This document shows, one piece after another, positions 6,133-63,045 of a DNA stretch of 64,000 nucleotides. Position 1 is the stretch's first letter. Each line of letters starts with the position of its first letter. This stretch comes from Candidatus Micrarchaeota archaeon (GTDB taxonomy: Archaea > Micrarchaeota > Micrarchaeia > Anstonellales > J096): contig WAMF01000001.1 of the NCBI GenBank assembly GCA_015522475.1, forward strand, positions 36,054 through 100,053. Reading direction: 5' to 3'. The notes under the pieces are model-generated. The model was not told the origin of the DNA and searched no databases. It saw nothing but the letters and a program-made list of their open reading frames with translations. A program made the position numbers and the translations under genes.

Positions 6133-6215
6133 GCCGGGGTGGCGGAGTGGTTATCGCGCCGGACTCGAGATCCGGTGCCCGCAAGGGCACAAGGGTTCGA
6201 ATCCCTTCCCCGGCG
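6133..6215 (+). tRNA. tRNA-Ser (anticodon CGA)
   Basis: Cloverleaf: acceptor GCCGGGG/CCCCGGC, anticodon stem CCGGA/TCCGG with loop CTCGAGA, long variable arm typical of Ser, T-arm AAGGG-TTCGAAT-CCCTT, G73. No encoded CCA. Confidence 0.85.
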
Positions 6216-6281
6216 CTCTCTGCCTAACGAACACTAATAGATATATGGTCAACTTGCCCAATACTTCATATGGCCAAAAAG

Positions 6282-6867: not shown

Positions 6868-6965
6868 CCCGCCGTAGCTCAACGGTAGAGCGCCCGGCTG
6901 TAGTTTGTCGCCGCGAAGGCTAAGTGGTTACCGGGAGGTTGGCGGTTCAAATCCGCCCGGCGGGA
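6868..6965 (+). tRNA. tRNA-Tyr (anticodon GUA) with ~26-nt intron in the anticodon loop
   Basis: Acceptor CCCGCCG/CGGCGGG has the C1:G72 pair diagnostic of archaeal/eukaryal tRNA-Tyr, with A73. D-arm GCTC-AACGGTA-GAGC; anticodon stem CCCGG/CCGGG with loop CTGTAG^(intron TTTGTCGCCGCGAAGGCTAAGTGGTT)A; T-arm GGCGG-TTCAAAT-CCGCC. Confidence 0.75.
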
Positions 6966-7046
6966 CTCATATTTTTAGATGCTCATTATACCTTGTTTCC
7001 CTTCGCTGTTATGTCACTCTGTTACTTTTCCACTTTCATTGCTTCG

Positions 7047-19737: not shown

Positions 19738-19906
19738 ATGGGGCTAAACCAGGGGGTTGCCCGTAATGGGCTAAGAAGCGCCTCTAGGCGCTCACTCTGC
19801 TTCGCGGAGTTCGCGGGCCAGACTTGGCCTGCTTACGGCGCTTCGCGCGTCGTGCCAAGTGTCCTCCCTTCGGGTTGAGGACCACCTCCTGGGGCCTAAC
19901 CTTCTT
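19738..19906. ncRNA. candidate structured non-coding RNA (GC-rich island)
   Basis: ~170-nt, ~65% GC block in otherwise AT-rich intergenic space with no ORF; several perfect hairpins and termini that can pair. Identity unknown. Confidence 0.3.
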
Positions 19907-20001
19907 TTAAGCTTTCTTTCCAGTCGACTAAATATGACTAAACTTTCATTGATCCTTCGCCGCTGGCATAAGTTATTAAAGTTTAATCGCCAAAAACCAG
20001 C

Positions 20002-21609
20002 GTGACCGAGCTCTACGAAAAGCTAAACCAAGCGTGGAAACAAACGTGTAAGATAGTGCTAGGCGATGAGGTAGGCGAGCTGAGCGAGTATAAGCCATGG
20101 TTGGAAGAAGTCTTCAAGGAGTATAGCTCTCCAGAGTACGGCCCTTGGAAAAAGGAAGTGAGCTCAGCCTTGACGGAGAAAGCCGTTTACGTTTTTGCCC
20201 CTTTCTATGAGAAGGGAGCTAAGTTCGCTGAGTATGATCTATTAAAGGAGAAAAAGATAGAGCCTTTATCGTTAGATGAGATAAAGGACATAGACTCTAT
20301 TTTAGAGGCATGGAAAGAGCGCTGGTGTTATAAGGCCAGTGTCGTCCTAGGCAAAAGCTATCATGTAGAAGAAAGCGATTCCGTGTTTAATTCAAGCTTT
20401 GTGTTGGGCTCCTATGCTGTAGCAGAGTCTAGCTACGTGGCTTATTCCATATGGGTAAGGAATGGTGGAAGATATATATTCGGTAGTGGAGGCGGGCCGG
20501 GTTTTAAGTTTGCCATACGTTCAGGATACGGCGCTGGCTTCAATCGCGGCATGGGCACATACTTTTTCGCTAACGTAAGCGACGTTTACTTTAGCCACTA
20601 CATCTTTGACAGCAGCGAGGTCATGTTCTCCTTTAATCAGATAGGTAAGCACTACATCATAGGCAATCTTCAGCTAACAAAGGATAAATACATGCAAACA
20701 AAAGCGGCTTTACTTGAGCAGATAAGGGCTGAGTTAAAAGCAAAGAAACGTTTTCCTTCTCTCATGGAGTTAGTGGCTGAAAATAAAGCTAAGCTTCTCC
20801 CTATCCCAGAAGAAGAGCTGAAGAAGATAAGTGTAGAGGAAGAGAAGTGCGATATGAAGCCCATAGAGGCGGGATTTGAGCGCACAACAAAGCTTTTGCT
20901 AGGAGAGAGCTTTACTTTAGATGAGCTGAAGGGCTATCTCATGGGGAAGCGAGCCGTTCCTCCTCAGCTCATAGAAACGCCCAGCGGAGCTAAGGCTGTG
21001 TACTACTCCGTTCTTTATCACACATCTTGGCCTAGTGACATAAACCTCAGGATCATTATTGACAAGGAAGCTAATGCGGCAGCAACTGTAACACTGGAAG
21101 AAAGCTCTATAAAAGAGCTCAGGAGTATTCGTCAAAGTATCGGGAGGATCGCCTACATATCCCAAAGCCTTTCATATAAGAGTATGAATATCTGCAGCGT
21201 TCCCATATCTTTCAACTCAAGGGATGTCGCATATATCTTTGACACTACAGAGAATAAAGTGGCAGCCTATAATTACGTGGGCAGCCCCTCTTCCAGCTAC
21301 ATCTTCGGTAGCTTTTTCACCACCAACTCTTCCTTTGTCATAAACAGCGACGTAAATGAGAACCTGCAGCGCGCTATAGAAGCAGACCGCTGCTCAAACA
21401 GTAGCGACATTTATTTCAGCCACGATATAGACGGCTCAACAGAAGTTATGTTCTCCCAGCACTTGAAAGGCGCGCGCTACACCATTGGCAACTTAGCCCT
21501 TGATAAGGAAAAATACCTCTCCATAAAAGCCTCCCTACTCAGCCAAGTCGTGAATGAATTAAAAAGCAAAGGCAAGCTGCACTTCGGCGTGAGGGAGCTA
21601 GGTGTATAG
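20002..21609 (+). CDS. repeat-module protein of unrecognised family (fused paralog)
   Basis: 535 aa; two tandem modules each consisting of S/V-rich beta-strand-like repeats capped by the helix KY..IKAALLEQI..ELKAKK; no match to families I recognise. Confidence 0.55.
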   Translation: MTELYEKLNQAWKQTCKIVLGDEVGELSEYKPWLEEVFKEYSSPEYGPWKKEVSSALTEKAVYVFAPFYEKGAKFAEYDLLKEKKIEPLSLDEIKDIDSILEAWKERWCYKASVVLGKSYHVEESDSVFNSSFVLGSYAVAESSYVAYSIWVRNGGRYIFGSGGGPGFKFAIRSGYGAGFNRGMGTYFFANVSDVYFSHYIFDSSEVMFSFNQIGKHYIIGNLQLTKDKYMQTKAALLEQIRAELKAKKRFPSLMELVAENKAKLLPIPEEELKKISVEEEKCDMKPIEAGFERTTKLLLGESFTLDELKGYLMGKRAVPPQLIETPSGAKAVYYSVLYHTSWPSDINLRIIIDKEANAAATVTLEESSIKELRSIRQSIGRIAYISQSLSYKSMNICSVPISFNSRDVAYIFDTTENKVAAYNYVGSPSSSYIFGSFFTTNSSFVINSDVNENLQRAIEADRCSNSSDIYFSHDIDGSTEVMFSQHLKGARYTIGNLALDKEKYLSIKASLLSQVVNELKSKGKLHFGVRELGV

Positions 21610-29860: not shown

Positions 29861-30152
29861 CTTGGAAGTAATTTGTTGAAAGTAATTTGAACTCTGTTAG
29901 ATTTCGAGCTCTAATGACTTTTTAACCAATTTATTTATTGTCGGCTAAAAAGCATTAAAAAGACTTTTAGCCAAGAGTTTGTTGTGATGAGACACAGGTT
30001 TGCTGACGCCTCGCATATGCACGGGCAATGATGAATATCTGGAGCTCTGAAAGCTCAGATTTGATTCTGTTGAAGATGGATTAAATATTGAGGATGGTGA
30101 AGATGGACTTGAAGTAATTTACTCGAAGTAACTTGAAAGGCATGGTGAAAAG

Positions 30153-31964: not shown

Positions 31965-33227
31965 TTATAATGGTAACCATTCTATCTCATAGTAAAGCGT
32001 CGAGCTACTTTCTAAGATGATTCTACGAGCTATGTAGAAAGTTATGGCCGTTTCTCTATCTACAATAGCTAGCATGACATTCAATCCCTTGGCTAAAGCC
32101 CACTTAAACAAGCCATGAAGAAGCCTACCCGTTATTCCGTCTGACTGCCTAAGCACTTTAACAGCAAAACGCTCAATTTTGGGGTTGTGTTGTTGAACAA
32201 GCTGCTTGCTGAGCTTATCTTTGCTCTCTTGGCTGTTGCCTTTCCCTTTGCCCGCAATGCTTACAACAAAATCTGGTTTGACAGCTCTAGCCTCAAAGAG
32301 AGGAAGTGCTAATATGTATGTTTTTCTAACACTGTGACAAACCCGTATAGAACGACTCCAATCCTCTACGCGCGTCCGGAATGAGGCAGGAAAGACATGA
32401 AGTATGTGCTTCGAATGGATACGCTGGCCGGGCTTTGTTGATGCAGGATAGATTCTAAAATCACCACCAAACTTAAACCCGCTTTTGAGAACGAAGCCCG
32501 CATCCCGCCATTCTTTGTATACAGAGTAAAGTGCTTTCTCGTATGCAGAAAGTGCAAGTGCTGCTTCTTTTTTCTTCTTGCCTTTGTTCTTACCATGCTT
32601 GCCATCAAAGGATAAAATGCCTTTCTCAGCAAGGTACTGTGCCTCATACTTGTCAATAAAAAACATCCGACCCTTGTTCTGTTTATATATGCCTTTTTGG
32701 CCGAACCAATACTCTGTGTAAAGAGATGATGAACCATCTATCTGATAGAGAAAACCGTCAAAGCCTTGAATGTGTGCCTTCTCCTCTTTTAGTCCTCTCA
32801 CGTTCCATCGCGCTTTCTTGTATTCCTTCACGGGCTTAGCTTTTCCCTCAGCTTCATCCACGCTGCCAACAAACGTAAAGCCCCTTTCATGCAAGTAGCG
32901 CCATGTGATGTATTTAGCGTAGTCCACATGCGACGAGAGAAAAAGTTTTGACGCACTTTCATTTGCGAGCTCAACGCCAAGTATATCATAGAGATAAATA
33001 GCTGCATAAGGAGAAAGTTTTGCTCGCTGAGCTTTTCTCTTGGCTTTCTCTACAGACTCGTTGTTTCTGTCCTTGAGTTTAAGAGAGCTGGCAAGACCGC
33101 GTGCTATAAGCCTCGATACCTCCGCTTCCTCTCCTTCATAGAACCACTCCACTTTCTCCCTAGCTTTCGCGTTCTTTGCTGTTGCAGCTTTGCTCAGCTC
33201 ACCAACAATTTTACCCTTTAACCTCAT
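31965..33227 (-). CDS. endA: tRNA-splicing endonuclease, three-unit (epsilon-like) form
   Basis: Central unit matches the EndA catalytic domain (AGFVLKSGFKFGGDFRIYP...HSKHILHVFP...IRVCHSVRKTYILAL; compare M. jannaschii RGYIVKTGLKYGADFRLYE...HSVYLVKVFP...VRVAHSVRKKLLIAI). A second degenerate EndA-like unit lies at the C-terminus (NVMLAIVDRETAITFYIARRI), plus an N-terminal extra unit. 420 aa. Confidence 0.75.
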   Translation of the reverse strand: MRLKGKIVGELSKAATAKNAKAREKVEWFYEGEEAEVSRLIARGLASSLKLKDRNNESVEKAKRKAQRAKLSPYAAIYLYDILGVELANESASKLFLSSHVDYAKYITWRYLHERGFTFVGSVDEAEGKAKPVKEYKKARWNVRGLKEEKAHIQGFDGFLYQIDGSSSLYTEYWFGQKGIYKQNKGRMFFIDKYEAQYLAEKGILSFDGKHGKNKGKKKKEAALALSAYEKALYSVYKEWRDAGFVLKSGFKFGGDFRIYPASTKPGQRIHSKHILHVFPASFRTRVEDWSRSIRVCHSVRKTYILALPLFEARAVKPDFVVSIAGKGKGNSQESKDKLSKQLVQQHNPKIERFAVKVLRQSDGITGRLLHGLFKWALAKGLNVMLAIVDRETAITFYIARRIILESSSTLYYEIEWLPL

Positions 33228-33856
33228 GCAAGACCCTCTTTTCCTTCCTTCTGGCCATTGCCCATTTGGGCGCTCTTCTGGCCGAATACAAGATAGGCTG
33301 TATGGAAAAGCTGCATGTTCTTGGGGCGTGTGGCTCCCTCTTTAATCCTGTATTCTATGAGAGGCAAGGAAATGACAAACACGTGGTTAAAGAGAATGGT
33401 CATAGCCTCATAGAGGCGCTTAACCTGCTCTATGTTTGGTAAATAGGCTACGAAATAGCCCCCTGAGTTCAACCGCTCATAGGCGCGTTCGACGAGTTCC
33501 TCGGGCGCTGGAATATCCACGACGATTGCATCCAAGGAGTCTTCGTCGAAGTCCCGACCATCCCCATTCTTTATAACGACGTTGTCTAGTTTTGCCTTCT
33601 TTATGTTTGCCGAGAGAATTTTATAGGCATCTGCCCTAATTTCGTACGCATAAACCTCCTTAGCAACTCTTGCCAAATGATAAGTAAGAAAGCCGTTGCC
33701 TGCGCCTATTTCGACCACGCGCGACGTCTTGCCGATGTTTGCATAGGCAATGATAGCGCCTGCATCCTTTGGTAGAACAACAGCCATGCGTCGTTTGAAT
33801 GAGGCCAATGGCTTAGGCATGTGAAACACTTCTACAGCTTTCTTCTCACCTTTCAT
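33224..33856 (-). CDS. SAM-dependent methyltransferase, TrmI (tRNA m1A58)-like
   Basis: VVEIGAGNGFLTYHLA motif I, acidic motif II (YAYEIR), NVVIKNGD and VVDIP motifs; 210 aa. Confidence 0.5.
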   Translation of the reverse strand: MKGEKKAVEVFHMPKPLASFKRRMAVVLPKDAGAIIAYANIGKTSRVVEIGAGNGFLTYHLARVAKEVYAYEIRADAYKILSANIKKAKLDNVVIKNGDGRDFDEDSLDAIVVDIPAPEELVERAYERLNSGGYFVAYLPNIEQVKRLYEAMTILFNHVFVISLPLIEYRIKEGATRPKNMQLFHTAYLVFGQKSAQMGNGQKEGKEGLA

Positions 33857-50337: not shown

Positions 50338-50440
50338 TGGGGCCGCCGAGAGTTTCAGGGCCAAGCACAAAGCAAAGCCCTTTTGAACTCGGGTTACGGG
50401 CACCCCAAGCCCGCAGGCTCCCAGGCTACCCCACGGCCCC
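50338..50440 (-). tRNA. candidate tRNA-Pro (anticodon GGG) with ~30-nt insertion in the T-loop (non-canonical intron)
   Basis: Minus strand: acceptor GGGGCCG/CGGCCCC+A73, D-arm GGGT-AGCCTGGGA-GCCT, anticodon stem CGGGC/GCCCG with loop TTGGGGT (U33, G37), T-stem CCGAG/CTCGG, T-loop TTCAAA followed by AGGGCTTTGCTTTGTGCTTGGCCCTGAAACT inserted before the 3' T-stem strand. Confidence 0.5.
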
Positions 50441-52713: not shown

Positions 52714-52775
52714 GGATTCACCTCGAAGGAGATGGAAAGGAAAAGCTTAAAAATGGTTAACATGGTGTTTAAGGC

Positions 52776-54503
52776 ATGATGCTTATCAACAAAAATAACG
52801 AAAAACGCCTCCTCCTGCTCTCTGCTCTTCTTTTTGCAACAATCCGCCTGTTTTTTCCTCTCTATTTTGTTACGCCGGACACATACACATATATGTGTTC
52901 GTCTTTGCACCTCGGAGATGAACACATCTCTCTGAAACACCGCTTTAACTTATATGTGTGGCTTAATCATACATTAGTAACTTTATTTGGCACAGGTGCT
53001 GGTAGAGGTGCGATCGTTAAAAAAGTTGCGCTGGCTTTCAAAGGGCTACAAATAAGCGTGGCCATATTTCTCGGGCTCGCATTTGTGTTTATGTATTATA
53101 TCATTAGAGAGCTGAATGTCAAACCCGGAACAGCTCTTATGCTAAGCTTTGCACTTATGATATTACCGCCCATGAACCTTACAACAAACCTTATTGAAGA
53201 AGCAATGGCACTGCCTTTGGCTATATGGTTTTTGCTGGCATTTTTGCGAAGGGAAAAAGCTTTTGTATTCATGCTTGGCCTCCTGCTTGTCATGACAAAA
53301 TTAACGACGCTGGGTTTGGTCTTGTCTGCTTATGCTCTCCTTGCATTAGAGGTTGTAAAAGGCAAACGCAGTTTGTTAGGCAGATGGTTGAAAGGAAAAT
53401 TCTTCGGCAGGGCACACTCAACTCCTAGCCTTTCTTATTGGGTCTTAACTGCTAGTTTGTTCCTACTTGGCTGTCTCGCCGCTGTAGCGGCTGTAAACCC
53501 TTTAAGGTTATTCCCGCTCATAACAAGCTTTCCACTAAAAGCCTGGGCTCTCCAAATTGTAGGTTTCCTTTTATACATAACGCTTCTCACCTCGGGCTTT
53601 AACATCCCAAATGTACGAGAGGTATTCAATGAAAGGATGTCTGCTGCCCACTTCTCATTGACTACAACCAGCGTGCAAAGAGATCGTCTCCTTGTTTTGG
53701 GCATAGGAGCGCTAGCTTTCATGCTGCCAGTATACTTAGTCCGCATCCCTTACCCTGAATTCATCACAGTAGGCATATACAGTCGTTATTTAGACCTAGC
53801 AGCTTTGCCCCTCTATGTCTTAGGCTACTCACGATTGCCGTCTAAGAAGAGTTTTGTTTTGTTCCTTATAGCAGGTTTTTTAGCTGGCATGGGCCTTATG
53901 AATTTTGACCCCTCTGCAGCCCCAGTTATTTTAGAAGTACTGCCTTTTAGCTCCTTTCTCCCTGCGGTTGTAGCGCTCTGGCTCCTCCTCAGCACATACA
54001 AGTTAAAGAGCAACGCACTACTCCGACTGACACAGGCCGCTATAGTTGCAGCTCTGCTCATCCCATTCAACCCGCTCATCGAAGTGCATCACACAAGCAT
54101 AGGTGTAGCCTCGTCTAAAGACTTGGCTTACGCATGCCACCTGCTTGGTTATAATGTTTCTGCAGCTTCTCTGACTACAATCCACCCCTCCCTCAATACG
54201 CTCGCCCAAAGCAATACAGCACTAGGCAAAACGGGTATTATGGCCGCGGATAATCTGCGCGTTGTAGAAACAAAGCGTCTCGTGCCCATCAATGCGACAG
54301 TCGTGAACATCTGCTTGTTTAGAAAGCTATGGATAAAGGTCGATAACAAAAAGATATGGCTAGAGCCGCGTGAAAAGCTTCCTTTGAAGAATGTAAAGCC
54401 CATCAATGTTACGTTTGAGCTCATCCCACCAATAACGTGCAATCCTCTTGTGCCATATGTGGGGAGAGTGGGTGCGGCAGTCGTGGCAAATAACGGCAAC
54501 TAA
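52776..54503 (+). CDS. polytopic membrane protein, possibly GT-C-fold glycosyltransferase-like
   Basis: 575 aa with ~11-13 TM helices and a C-terminal soluble domain; family not assignable by eye. Confidence 0.35.
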   Translation: MMLINKNNEKRLLLLSALLFATIRLFFPLYFVTPDTYTYMCSSLHLGDEHISLKHRFNLYVWLNHTLVTLFGTGAGRGAIVKKVALAFKGLQISVAIFLGLAFVFMYYIIRELNVKPGTALMLSFALMILPPMNLTTNLIEEAMALPLAIWFLLAFLRREKAFVFMLGLLLVMTKLTTLGLVLSAYALLALEVVKGKRSLLGRWLKGKFFGRAHSTPSLSYWVLTASLFLLGCLAAVAAVNPLRLFPLITSFPLKAWALQIVGFLLYITLLTSGFNIPNVREVFNERMSAAHFSLTTTSVQRDRLLVLGIGALAFMLPVYLVRIPYPEFITVGIYSRYLDLAALPLYVLGYSRLPSKKSFVLFLIAGFLAGMGLMNFDPSAAPVILEVLPFSSFLPAVVALWLLLSTYKLKSNALLRLTQAAIVAALLIPFNPLIEVHHTSIGVASSKDLAYACHLLGYNVSAASLTTIHPSLNTLAQSNTALGKTGIMAADNLRVVETKRLVPINATVVNICLFRKLWIKVDNKKIWLEPREKLPLKNVKPINVTFELIPPITCNPLVPYVGRVGAAVVANNGN

Positions 54504-54540
54504 ACGAAAAGTAGGGTTCAGGAATAAAAAATAAAGAGAA

Positions 54541-54614
54541 CGCCCCCGCCGGGATTTGAACCCGGGCCATGGGATCCGCAGTCCCACATTCTATCCAAGC
54601 TGAACTACGGGGGC
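54541..54614 (-). tRNA. tRNA-Arg (anticodon GCG)
   Basis: Minus strand: acceptor GCCCCCG/CGGGGGC, anticodon stem TGGGA/TCCCA with loop CTGCGGA, T-arm CCGGG-TTCAAAT-CCCGG, G73. Confidence 0.8.
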
Positions 54615-54776
54615 AACATATAAGGGCGGAGAAACATTAATAAGACTAGAGGCCGCTAGATGAAAATTGCAGCCAGTTTGAGCTAAAGTTGGGTTTTAGG
54701 AGGAAGAAATAGAGTGGTGTAGAGAAGAGAGAAGTGAAAAAGGGATGATTAAACCAAAAAGATTAAATTATTACCC

Positions 54777-57082: not shown

Positions 57083-57169
57083 AGCAGGGGTCGCCAAGCC
57101 TGGTCAACGGCGTCAGGTTCAGGGCCTGATCCCTTAGTGGGTTCGTGGGTTCGAATCCCACCCCCTGCA
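57083..57169 (+). tRNA. tRNA-Leu (anticodon CAG)
   Basis: Acceptor GCAGGGG/CCCCTGC+A73, anticodon stem TCAGG/CCTGA with loop TTCAGGG, long variable arm, T-arm GTGGG-TTCGAAT-CCCAC. Confidence 0.85.
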
Positions 57170-57181
57170 CTTCTCTTTTTT
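57170..57181 (+). terminator. oligo-T tract after tRNA-Leu
   Basis: cttctcttttttt directly 3' of the tRNA; archaeal terminators are T-rich. Confidence 0.4.
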
Positions 57182-62910: not shown

Positions 62911-62972
62911 ACTTCGCTCCTCTAAAGCCAAAAGCAGCAATCGATGCAGAAATAAGGAGAGTAAGAGAGTAG

Positions 62973-63045
62973 TGCTCCGGCCGGGATTCGAACCCGGGTC
63001 GCTGGCTCGAAAGGCCAGCATCCTTGACCACTAGACGACCGGAGC
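62973..63045 (-). tRNA. tRNA-Glu (anticodon UUC)
   Basis: Minus strand: acceptor GCTCCGG/CCGGAGC+A73, anticodon stem CTGGC/GCCAG with loop CTTTCGA, T-arm CCGGG-TTCGAAT-CCCGG. Confidence 0.8.

Follow-up and report, generated by a model that had tools for sequence, protein, structure and literature searches.

A divergent tRNA splicing endonuclease of the ARMAN-2 epsilon type and two intron-containing tRNA genes in a Micrarchaeota genome window

Introduction

The 64,000-nucleotide (nt) stretch of Candidatus Micrarchaeota contig WAMF01000001.1 (assembly GCA_015522475.1, positions 36,054 to 100,053) analyzed here contains a gene, endA, for a tRNA splicing endonuclease (EndA) of 420 amino acids (aa). 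We refer to the whole stretch as the window and count coordinates from its first letter. The question raised by this locus is to which of the archaeal EndA architectures the protein belongs and which introns it would remove. An earlier interpretation made from the DNA letters alone (the sequence-only reading) had proposed a three-unit enzyme of the epsilon2 type seen in ARMAN-type ultrasmall archaea. Epsilon2 was discovered in ARMAN-1 and ARMAN-2 in 2011 (Fujishima 2011, PMC3239211), followed by the ARMAN-2 EndA structure in 2012 (Hirata, PMC3488258) and that of its RNA complex in 2025 (Miyata, PMC12397907). A 2019 review describes epsilon2 as identified in ARMAN-2 and lists no other enzyme of this kind, and the epsilon2 experiments in the literature cited here were performed with the ARMAN-2 protein throughout. 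We report that the gene in the window most likely (with a probability of about 0.88, judged from the computed fold and the residue comparisons) encodes an active epsilon-type EndA, that is, one polypeptide ordered alphaN, alpha, betaC.

Results

The endA gene encodes a protein with a centrally placed catalytic unit

The gene itself is located as follows.

31965..33227, minus strand: endA, 420-aa three-unit (epsilon-type) RNA-splicing endonuclease, stop codon included (list of open reading frames, PF01974, ARMAN-2 match, Foldseek)

The listing of open reading frames (ORFs) confirmed an ATG start and 420 codons without frameshift or internal stop, and all three motif strings by which the gene had originally been recognized are present: FKFGGDFRIYP at residues 251-261, HSKHILHVFP at 271-280, and HSVRKTYILAL at 298-308. 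The start codon is supported, because homologues share the N terminus (MRLKGKIV here versus MHLKGKVV and MKLKGNVV) and because the start overlaps the stop codon of the upstream gene by 4 nt, ATGA (33224-33227). Three contigs carry a record of the identical 420-aa protein, among them JALTHZ010000012.1 (assembly GCA_027075965.1). No second EndA-like ORF was found in the 64-kb window.

Pfam tRNA_int_endo (PF01974) matched residues 234-308 at 74 bits against a cutoff of 27 (E = 1e-20), which places the protein in this superfamily, and tRNA_int_endo_N gave a weak match at residues 161-212. The complete catalytic unit lies in the middle of the protein, with ∼146 residues ahead of it and 112 behind it, so that the single catalytic domain is central and not C-terminal as in the alpha'2 enzymes. 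TIGR00324 (endA) scored 60.8 bits against a cutoff of 59.6, covering the catalytic domain only. We rejected the alpha4 class, whose members consist of one unit of ∼170 to 180 aa, since this protein has 420 aa and the EndA of M. jannaschii (1a79) aligned only to residues 184-308.

The protein is collinear with ARMAN-2 EndA over its whole length

When all PDB chains were searched with the single sequence, the best match was the EndA of ARMAN-2 (Candidatus Micrarchaeum acidiphilum; 4FZ2/9W2K), with E = 4.6e-44 over query residues 165-418. We then used an alignment, A1, of the query and 16 full-length relatives from a large protein collection (17 sequences, the relatives being 29 to 51% identical to the query). 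The A1 profile aligned with ARMAN-2 EndA in one collinear stretch, from positions 10-346 of 347 to chain residues 9-386 of 395, at E = 6e-96. All other endonucleases, the second-ranked one included (E = 2.8e-40), matched in the catalytic unit only.

The predicted fold gave the same picture. An AlphaFold2 model built from A1 reached a mean predicted local distance difference test score (pLDDT) of 84.1 and a predicted template modeling score (pTM) of 0.83, its low-confidence stretches being the insertions described below. Foldseek comparison of this model with the PDB returned 9w2k_B and 4fz2_A on top (E = 2e-29; template modeling [TM] scores, 0.74/0.80; 430 aligned columns), the match to the ARMAN-2 epsilon protomer extending over the whole length. 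Identity to ARMAN-2 amounted to ∼40% in the alpha-betaC part. By every sequence and fold test that we applied, the protein thus belongs to the ARMAN-2-type epsilon2 family, and the architecture proposed in the sequence-only reading is supported.

Order and boundaries of the three units

The units of ARMAN-2 EndA comprise residues 2-97 (alphaN), 98-125 (linker 1), 126-288 (alpha), 289-300 (linker 2), and 301-387 (betaC) (Hirata 2012, PMC3488258). Transferred to the protein studied here, they correspond to the following segments.

32868..33227, minus strand: alphaN unit, residues 1 to ∼120 (approximate; profile alignment to ARMAN-2 residues 9-∼111 and secondary structure of the model)
32790..32867, minus strand: linker 1, residues ∼121-146 (approximate; mapped from ARMAN-2 linker 1, residues 98-125; lower pLDDT)
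32304..32789, minus strand: alpha unit, the complete catalytic unit, residues ∼147-308 (approximate; residue-by-residue alignment to ARMAN-2)
32664..32693, minus strand: specificity loop equivalent to the ARMAN-specific loop (ASL), residues 179-188 (aligns with ARMAN-2 G158-L168)
32271..32303, minus strand: linker 2, residues ∼309-319 (approximate; mapped from ARMAN-2 linker 2, residues 289-300)
31968..32270, minus strand: betaC unit, a structural C-subdomain, residues 320-420 (aligns with ARMAN-2 residues 301-385)

In the secondary structure of the model, alphaN resembles an N-terminal subdomain in its fold and additionally contains the first helix and strand of a C-subdomain. This composition agrees with the weak internal similarities detected by profile-profile comparison of subdomains (hhalign with slices of A1). 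There, residues 71-81 of alphaN resembled residues 191-201 in the N-subdomain of alpha (an E-A-x-Y-L helix; P = 9e-4), and residues 104-117 of alphaN resembled residues 232-245 in the first helix of the C-subdomain of alpha (a Y-x-x-W-R-x-x-G helix; P = 2e-3). It also agrees with a sequence search in which residues 232-273 of the query matched ARMAN-2 residues 81-122 as well. The betaC part of the family profile had further matches in two structural beta subunits, PAE0789 from Pyrobaculum (E = 3e-6) and NEQ261 from Nanoarchaeum (E = 6e-4). By analogy with the ARMAN-2 enzyme, alphaN and betaC would together form one noncatalytic structural unit wrapped around alpha, with betaC supplying the rest of the C-subdomain begun in alphaN. 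The proposed arrangement of a central catalytic unit preceded by an N-terminal unit and followed by an EndA-like unit is therefore borne out by Pfam, by the collinearity with ARMAN-2, and by the model.

Residues with demonstrated roles in ARMAN-2 EndA are conserved

The roles assigned to individual ARMAN-2 residues come from mutagenesis and from crystal structures of the RNA complex (PMC3488258, PMC12397907). In our residue-by-residue alignment, every ARMAN-2 residue with a demonstrated role had an identical counterpart in the query. The catalytic triad Y260/H271/K302 (32448-32450, 32415-32417, and 32322-32324) corresponds to ARMAN-2 Y236/H251/K282, and S272 corresponds to S252, the transition-state helper. 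The clamp for the bulged base is formed in ARMAN-2 by R275 and W384, which are equivalent to R295 in alpha and W417 at the end of betaC (31977-31979). The salt bridges D357-K228 and E359-R234 through which ARMAN-2 EndA dimerizes (PMC3488258) have their counterparts, compared at the sequence level only, in D390-K252 and E392-R258. Here, the acidic L10 loop of betaC is D390-R391-E392 (32052-32060) and the basic pocket of alpha contains K252 and R258.

The same holds for the specificity loop, where Y181-K182 correspond to ARMAN-2 Y160-K161 within the sequence GIYKQNKGRM (residues 179-188; GTYKVSEHGNL in ARMAN-2), and the surrounding motif W-F-G-Q-x-G-x-Y-K is invariant in all 17 A1 sequences. In ARMAN-2, alanine mutants of Y160 and K161 are inactive and the loop permits cleavage of relaxed motifs (PMC3488258, PMC12397907); grafting the ASL onto Archaeoglobus fulgidus EndA sufficed to give that enzyme broad specificity (PMC3488258). 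All functional residues equivalent to those of ARMAN-2 are invariant in A1 save at E392, where most sequences have Glu or Asp. The canonical Tyr/His/Lys set that had been recognized in the central unit is accordingly intact throughout the alignment, with no catalytic residue lost.

On the model of the ARMAN-2 enzyme, two protomers would form an epsilon2 homodimer in which the L10 loop (D390, E392) enters the basic pocket (K252, R258) of the partner. Each active site would bind one bulge of the bulge-helix-bulge (BHB) motif, the first bulged base being sandwiched between R295 and W417 of the other protomer, while Y181 and K182 of the inserted loop would anchor the backbone beside the scissile phosphate. 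Y260 would then act as the general base on the 2'-OH and H271 as the general acid on the 5'-O leaving group, with K302 and S272 stabilizing the transition state. In-line attack by the 2'-OH would be expected to leave 2',3'-cyclic phosphate and 5'-OH ends. In archaeal tRNA splicing, the exons are joined by an RtcB-type ligase; RtcB was not among the ten larger ORFs scanned in the window.

Length does not mark the epsilon type

The sequence-only reading had taken the length of the protein as a sign of the epsilon type. The length of 420 aa is correct, but the argument drawn from it is not sound: the relatives in A1 have 334 to 363 aa (one has 391 aa) and ARMAN-2 EndA has 390 aa. Since the nearest three-unit relatives are therefore of alpha'2 size, length does not distinguish the two types. 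The excess is made up of ∼70 inserted residues, defined as query residues in columns absent from at least 80% of the relatives. They fall into four blocks: residues 9-21 and 46-61 in alphaN, the Lys-rich block 210-222 (KHGKNKGKKKKEA) between the subdomains of alpha, and residues 324-351 in betaC. All four lie in lower-confidence regions of the model, with pLDDT below 50 at residues 327-336, and the loops that hold the last two blocks also vary in length in the relative P0017 and in ARMAN-2.

Two of the six tRNA genes in the window contain introns

The window contains six tRNA genes, two of which (2/6) have introns.

6133-6216: tRNA gene
6868..6966, plus strand: pre-tRNA-Tyr(GTA), likely substrate, with a 26-nt intron (6904..6929) at the canonical position 37/38 (Rfam; ARAGORN with introns)
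50338..50440, minus strand: pre-tRNA-Pro(GGG), likely substrate, whose T-loop is split between positions 59 and 60 by a 30-nt intron (50352..50381) (GC-rich peak, by hand)
54540-54615: tRNA gene
57084-57170: tRNA gene
62972-63045: tRNA gene

Run without its intron option, ARAGORN reported four tRNA genes. The fifth was found by Rfam (6868-6965, 62.3 bits) and is called tRNA-Tyr(GTA) by ARAGORN with introns. The sixth, tRNA-Pro, was reached through a scan of GC-rich peaks, as the window has a GC content of 44% and the tRNAs have one of 63 to 71%; a gap of this size between tRNA and genome GC contents is common in thermophiles. Neither ARAGORN nor Rfam (at gathering and E-value thresholds) detected the tRNA-Pro precursor, because of the 30-nt intron at T-loop position 59/60. 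Once spliced in silico to 73 nt, it was called tRNA-Pro(ggg) by ARAGORN, with a normal cloverleaf and the T-loop TTCAAAT. Both precursors that had been suggested for cleavage assays are thus real genes, as judged from Rfam, ARAGORN, and the call on the spliced tRNA-Pro. In the other 22 GC-rich peaks, an ARAGORN deletion scan revealed no further hidden single-intron tRNAs; two-intron and split tRNAs were not searched for.

The tRNA-Pro intron can be drawn as a strict BHB consisting of the T-stem, a 4-bp UUCA/UGAA helix, and a 5-bp intron helix (−14.4 kcal/mol, constrained), with two 3-nt bulges, AAA and ACU, and the splice site after the second nucleotide of each. The tRNA-Tyr intron fits the same BHB register, with a central helix of one G-C and three G-U pairs and a constrained energy of −7.3 kcal/mol versus a minimum free energy (MFE) of −12.1 kcal/mol. 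The T-loop intron is therefore noncanonical in position and not in motif, which is consistent with broad specificity. Both pre-tRNA-Tyr (37/38) and pre-tRNA-Pro (59/60) would be expected among the substrates of the enzyme.

Distribution of three-unit EndA genes and neighborhood of endA

Scanning one genome per species, we found at least 577 loci that encode relatives of the fused three-unit EndA, most of them labeled Micrarchaeota. The labels and neighborhoods given below come from the best 80 of these at least 577 loci, the labels being the submitters' own and possibly imprecise. Micrarchaeota or their subgroups account for 59 of the 80, Aenigmatarchaeota for 10, Marsarchaeota for 4, Nanoarchaeota for 2, and Methanobacteriota for 1, the remaining 4 being unnamed. 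The two best loci are labeled "Methanobacteriota archaeon J096" (38% identity) and "Candidatus Anstonellales archaeon" (34%), Anstonellales being an order of Candidatus Micrarchaeia. The genome from which the window stems is not among the 80, and the nearest representative is only 38% identical. One metagenome-assembled genome (MAG), KMA_Bin06, holds two epsilon-type loci on different contigs (L021 and L030). Among the MAGs most closely related, several have isolate names in the style of sample labels (for example, QQ_, DRTY-, JZ-, and GXS_).

Directly upstream of endA lies a methyltransferase gene.

33224..33856, minus strand: 210-aa class I S-adenosylmethionine (SAM) methyltransferase, upstream of endA (PF08704, GCD14, E = 4.6e-14; ATGA overlap with endA)

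GCD14, the best Pfam match of this protein, is a tRNA m1A58 methyltransferase family. In an NCBIfam scan of the protein no model reached its cutoff, and we therefore rejected the name TrmI. The methyltransferase is translationally coupled to endA by the ATGA overlap, and the two genes are probably cotranscribed. A Cdc48-like double AAA ATPase is encoded farther upstream and a major facilitator superfamily (MFS) transporter downstream of endA. Among the best 80 related loci, only L002 and L003, the two nearest relatives, have the same order AAA ATPase-methyltransferase-EndA. Judged from these relatives and this gene order, the window most likely derives from a thinly sampled lineage of Micrarchaeia close to Anstonellales.

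Other elements in the window

An intergenic element of ∼157 nt at 19741-19897 (plus strand) has a GC content of 70% in a genome of 44% GC. In its predicted fold, a long helix closes a multibranch structure that carries five stable hairpins, of which several have UUCG-type loops, at an MFE of −87.1 kcal/mol (z = −4.45 versus shuffles; z = −2.66 for the minus strand). The element overlaps no ORF of at least 60 aa, matches no Rfam family at E values up to 10, and is not a single-intron tRNA, which makes it a candidate for an unclassified structured RNA. At 29980-30052 (plus strand), a weak match resembling C/D-box small RNA (Rfam sR3; E = 0.042; 24.4 bits versus a gathering score of 41) may point to a guide RNA or have arisen by chance. 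Two ORFs, measured stop to stop at 19987-21606 (plus strand, 540 aa) and 52773-54500 (plus strand, 576 aa), matched no Pfam family at E values up to 1e-5.

Discussion

Comparison with the known types of archaeal EndA

The closest known relative of the protein is the epsilon2 EndA of ARMAN-2. Both have alphaN, alpha, and betaC on one chain that is collinear over its full length, and both have the same triad, the same clamp, the Tyr-Lys loop, and the L10 loop with its pocket. Their hosts likewise agree in belonging to the class Micrarchaeia (here judged from the nearest relatives and the conserved neighborhood) and in having intron-bearing tRNA genes, including one with a T-loop intron. The two proteins differ in the four insertions, which are found only in the query, and in the loop close to the catalytic His; members of the query's subfamily are also mostly shorter (334 to 363 aa) than the 390-aa ARMAN-2 enzyme.

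In the (alpha-beta)2 enzymes (A. pernix 3P1Z/3AJV, P. aerophilum 2ZYZ, and N. equitans 3IEY) of Crenarchaeota and Nanoarchaeum, the catalytic alpha subunit is homologous to that studied here (E values of ∼1e-14 to 1e-22), the second clamp residue is likewise Trp and not Arg, and the C-terminal domain of beta (PAE0789, NEQ261) matches betaC. A further likeness is that a Lys-bearing extra loop adjoins the active site and confers broad specificity, although the crenarchaeal loop has only the Lys in common with the loop found here and the published view is that the two are convergent. However, the subunits of these enzymes are products of separate genes, whereas in the query the structural part is split and fused to both sides of the catalytic unit. 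We rejected the (alpha-beta)2 class because the beta-like C-terminal domain resides on the same chain and because the window lacks a second EndA-like ORF.

The alpha'2 enzymes of Euryarchaeota (A. fulgidus 2GJW/1RLV and T. acidophilum 2OHC) also consist of a single dimerizing chain with four subdomains, the same triad, and the same principle of L10 loop and pocket, and they are similar in chain length to most epsilon-type relatives. Their order is nevertheless different: a structural unit is followed by the catalytic unit and the chain ends there, while the epsilon order is an N-subdomain, the catalytic unit with its own N- and C-subdomains, and a C-subdomain. They also have an Arg/Arg clamp, no Tyr-Lys loop, and narrow specificity, in contrast to the Arg/Trp clamp and the Tyr-Lys loop of the query.

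Weighing of the alternatives

Several observations weigh against assigning the protein to an active epsilon2 enzyme of broad specificity. Over the whole structural alignment, no more than ∼27% of the residues are identical to those of ARMAN-2. Similarity among the units of the protein itself is weak, the best P values spanning 11 to 14 columns; similarities this weak do not prove repeats, so that alphaN was assigned by means of the ARMAN-2 match and the model. The loop near the catalytic His (ARMAN-2 residues 240-247) is 4 residues shorter in the query; in ARMAN-2, the mutations K241A and K244A in this loop had no effect (PMC3488258). With 64 kb of the genome covered, a second EndA gene may exist elsewhere. 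Finally, the sequence-only reading had seen in the T-loop intron a fit to an enzyme of relaxed specificity. The intron is real and consistent with such an enzyme, but since it can form a strict BHB, in contrast to the relaxed bulge-helix-loop (BHL) motif of the pre-tRNA-Cys test substrate of ARMAN-2, relaxed specificity is not required to explain it.

These last two points bear on the possibility that the protein has the epsilon fold and cleaves only strict BHB motifs, or that it is a paralogue with impaired catalysis, working alongside another EndA whose gene lies elsewhere in the genome. For each of the two introns in the window, a BHB motif with 3-nt bulges and a 4-bp helix can be drawn, and KMA_Bin06 provides an example of a genome with two epsilon-type loci. 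We nevertheless consider this quite improbable, given that all catalytic and clamp residues are intact, that the Tyr-Lys pair is invariant in A1 and lies in the very loop that broadened the specificity of A. fulgidus EndA upon grafting (PMC3488258), and that the central helix of the tRNA-Tyr intron is weak and of a kind better suited to a tolerant enzyme. Still less probable is a two-unit, alpha'2-type EndA merely lengthened by insertions. The ∼70 inserted residues, the presence of alpha'2 structures in the Foldseek list, and partial matches to NCBIfam PRK09300 subfamilies point in that direction, but the PRK09300 equivalogs scored 46 to 77 bits against cutoffs of 292 to 518 and covered the catalytic unit only. 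Moreover, the catalytic domain ends at residue 308 and is followed by a conserved 112-residue unit with the essential Trp and the L10 loop, the profile aligns with ARMAN-2 from end to end, and the model superimposes poorly on the alpha'2 enzymes of Archaeoglobus and Thermoplasma (TM scores of only 0.41/0.54 and a root mean square deviation of ∼12 Å, versus 0.74/0.80 for ARMAN-2). An artefact of assembly or annotation, either a chimeric fusion of alpha and beta genes or a pseudogene with spurious in-frame insertions, might come to mind in view of the origin of the sequence in a MAG and of the low complexity and low model confidence of the insertions. It is scarcely credible for an intact frame whose identical protein recurs on three contigs, whose product is collinear from end to end with 16 homologues from independent assemblies, and whose fused architecture is encoded at no fewer than 577 loci of species genomes; the insertions, for their part, sit in loops that are also of variable length in P0017 and ARMAN-2. 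We thus retain the assignment to an active epsilon-type EndA, a divergent member of an established enzyme type that introduces no new architecture or mechanism.

Within this assignment, the lineage-specific insertions might be functional additions, the main candidate being the Lys-rich block KHGKNKGKKKKEA, which could be an extra RNA-binding element similar to the positively charged loop of Nanoarchaeum EndA. As a separate matter, the GCD14/TrmI-like methyltransferase might link methylation of the T-loop to removal of the T-loop intron. We regard these suggestions as unlikely; if the RNA-binding role of KHGKNKGKKKKEA were true, the substrate range of the enzyme or its affinity for pre-tRNA could change.

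Implications for the epsilon family

Epsilon2 is the fourth and least sampled architecture among the archaeal tRNA splicing enzymes. The current understanding of these enzymes is left unchanged by our analysis, whose value lies in annotation and in comparative work. Standard annotation of this genome would miss tRNA-Pro(GGG), and database records of epsilon-type proteins usually say only "tRNA-intron lyase," although the family is far more widespread than its characterized example suggests. The protein may serve as a second model system that comes with natural substrates, as the window provides two for testing: one with a canonically placed intron whose helix is weak and one with an intron in the T-loop that can form a strict BHB. 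The conservation of all tested ARMAN-2 residues in so divergent a relative supports the generality of the published mechanism, notably of the Tyr-Lys loop and the Arg/Trp clamp.

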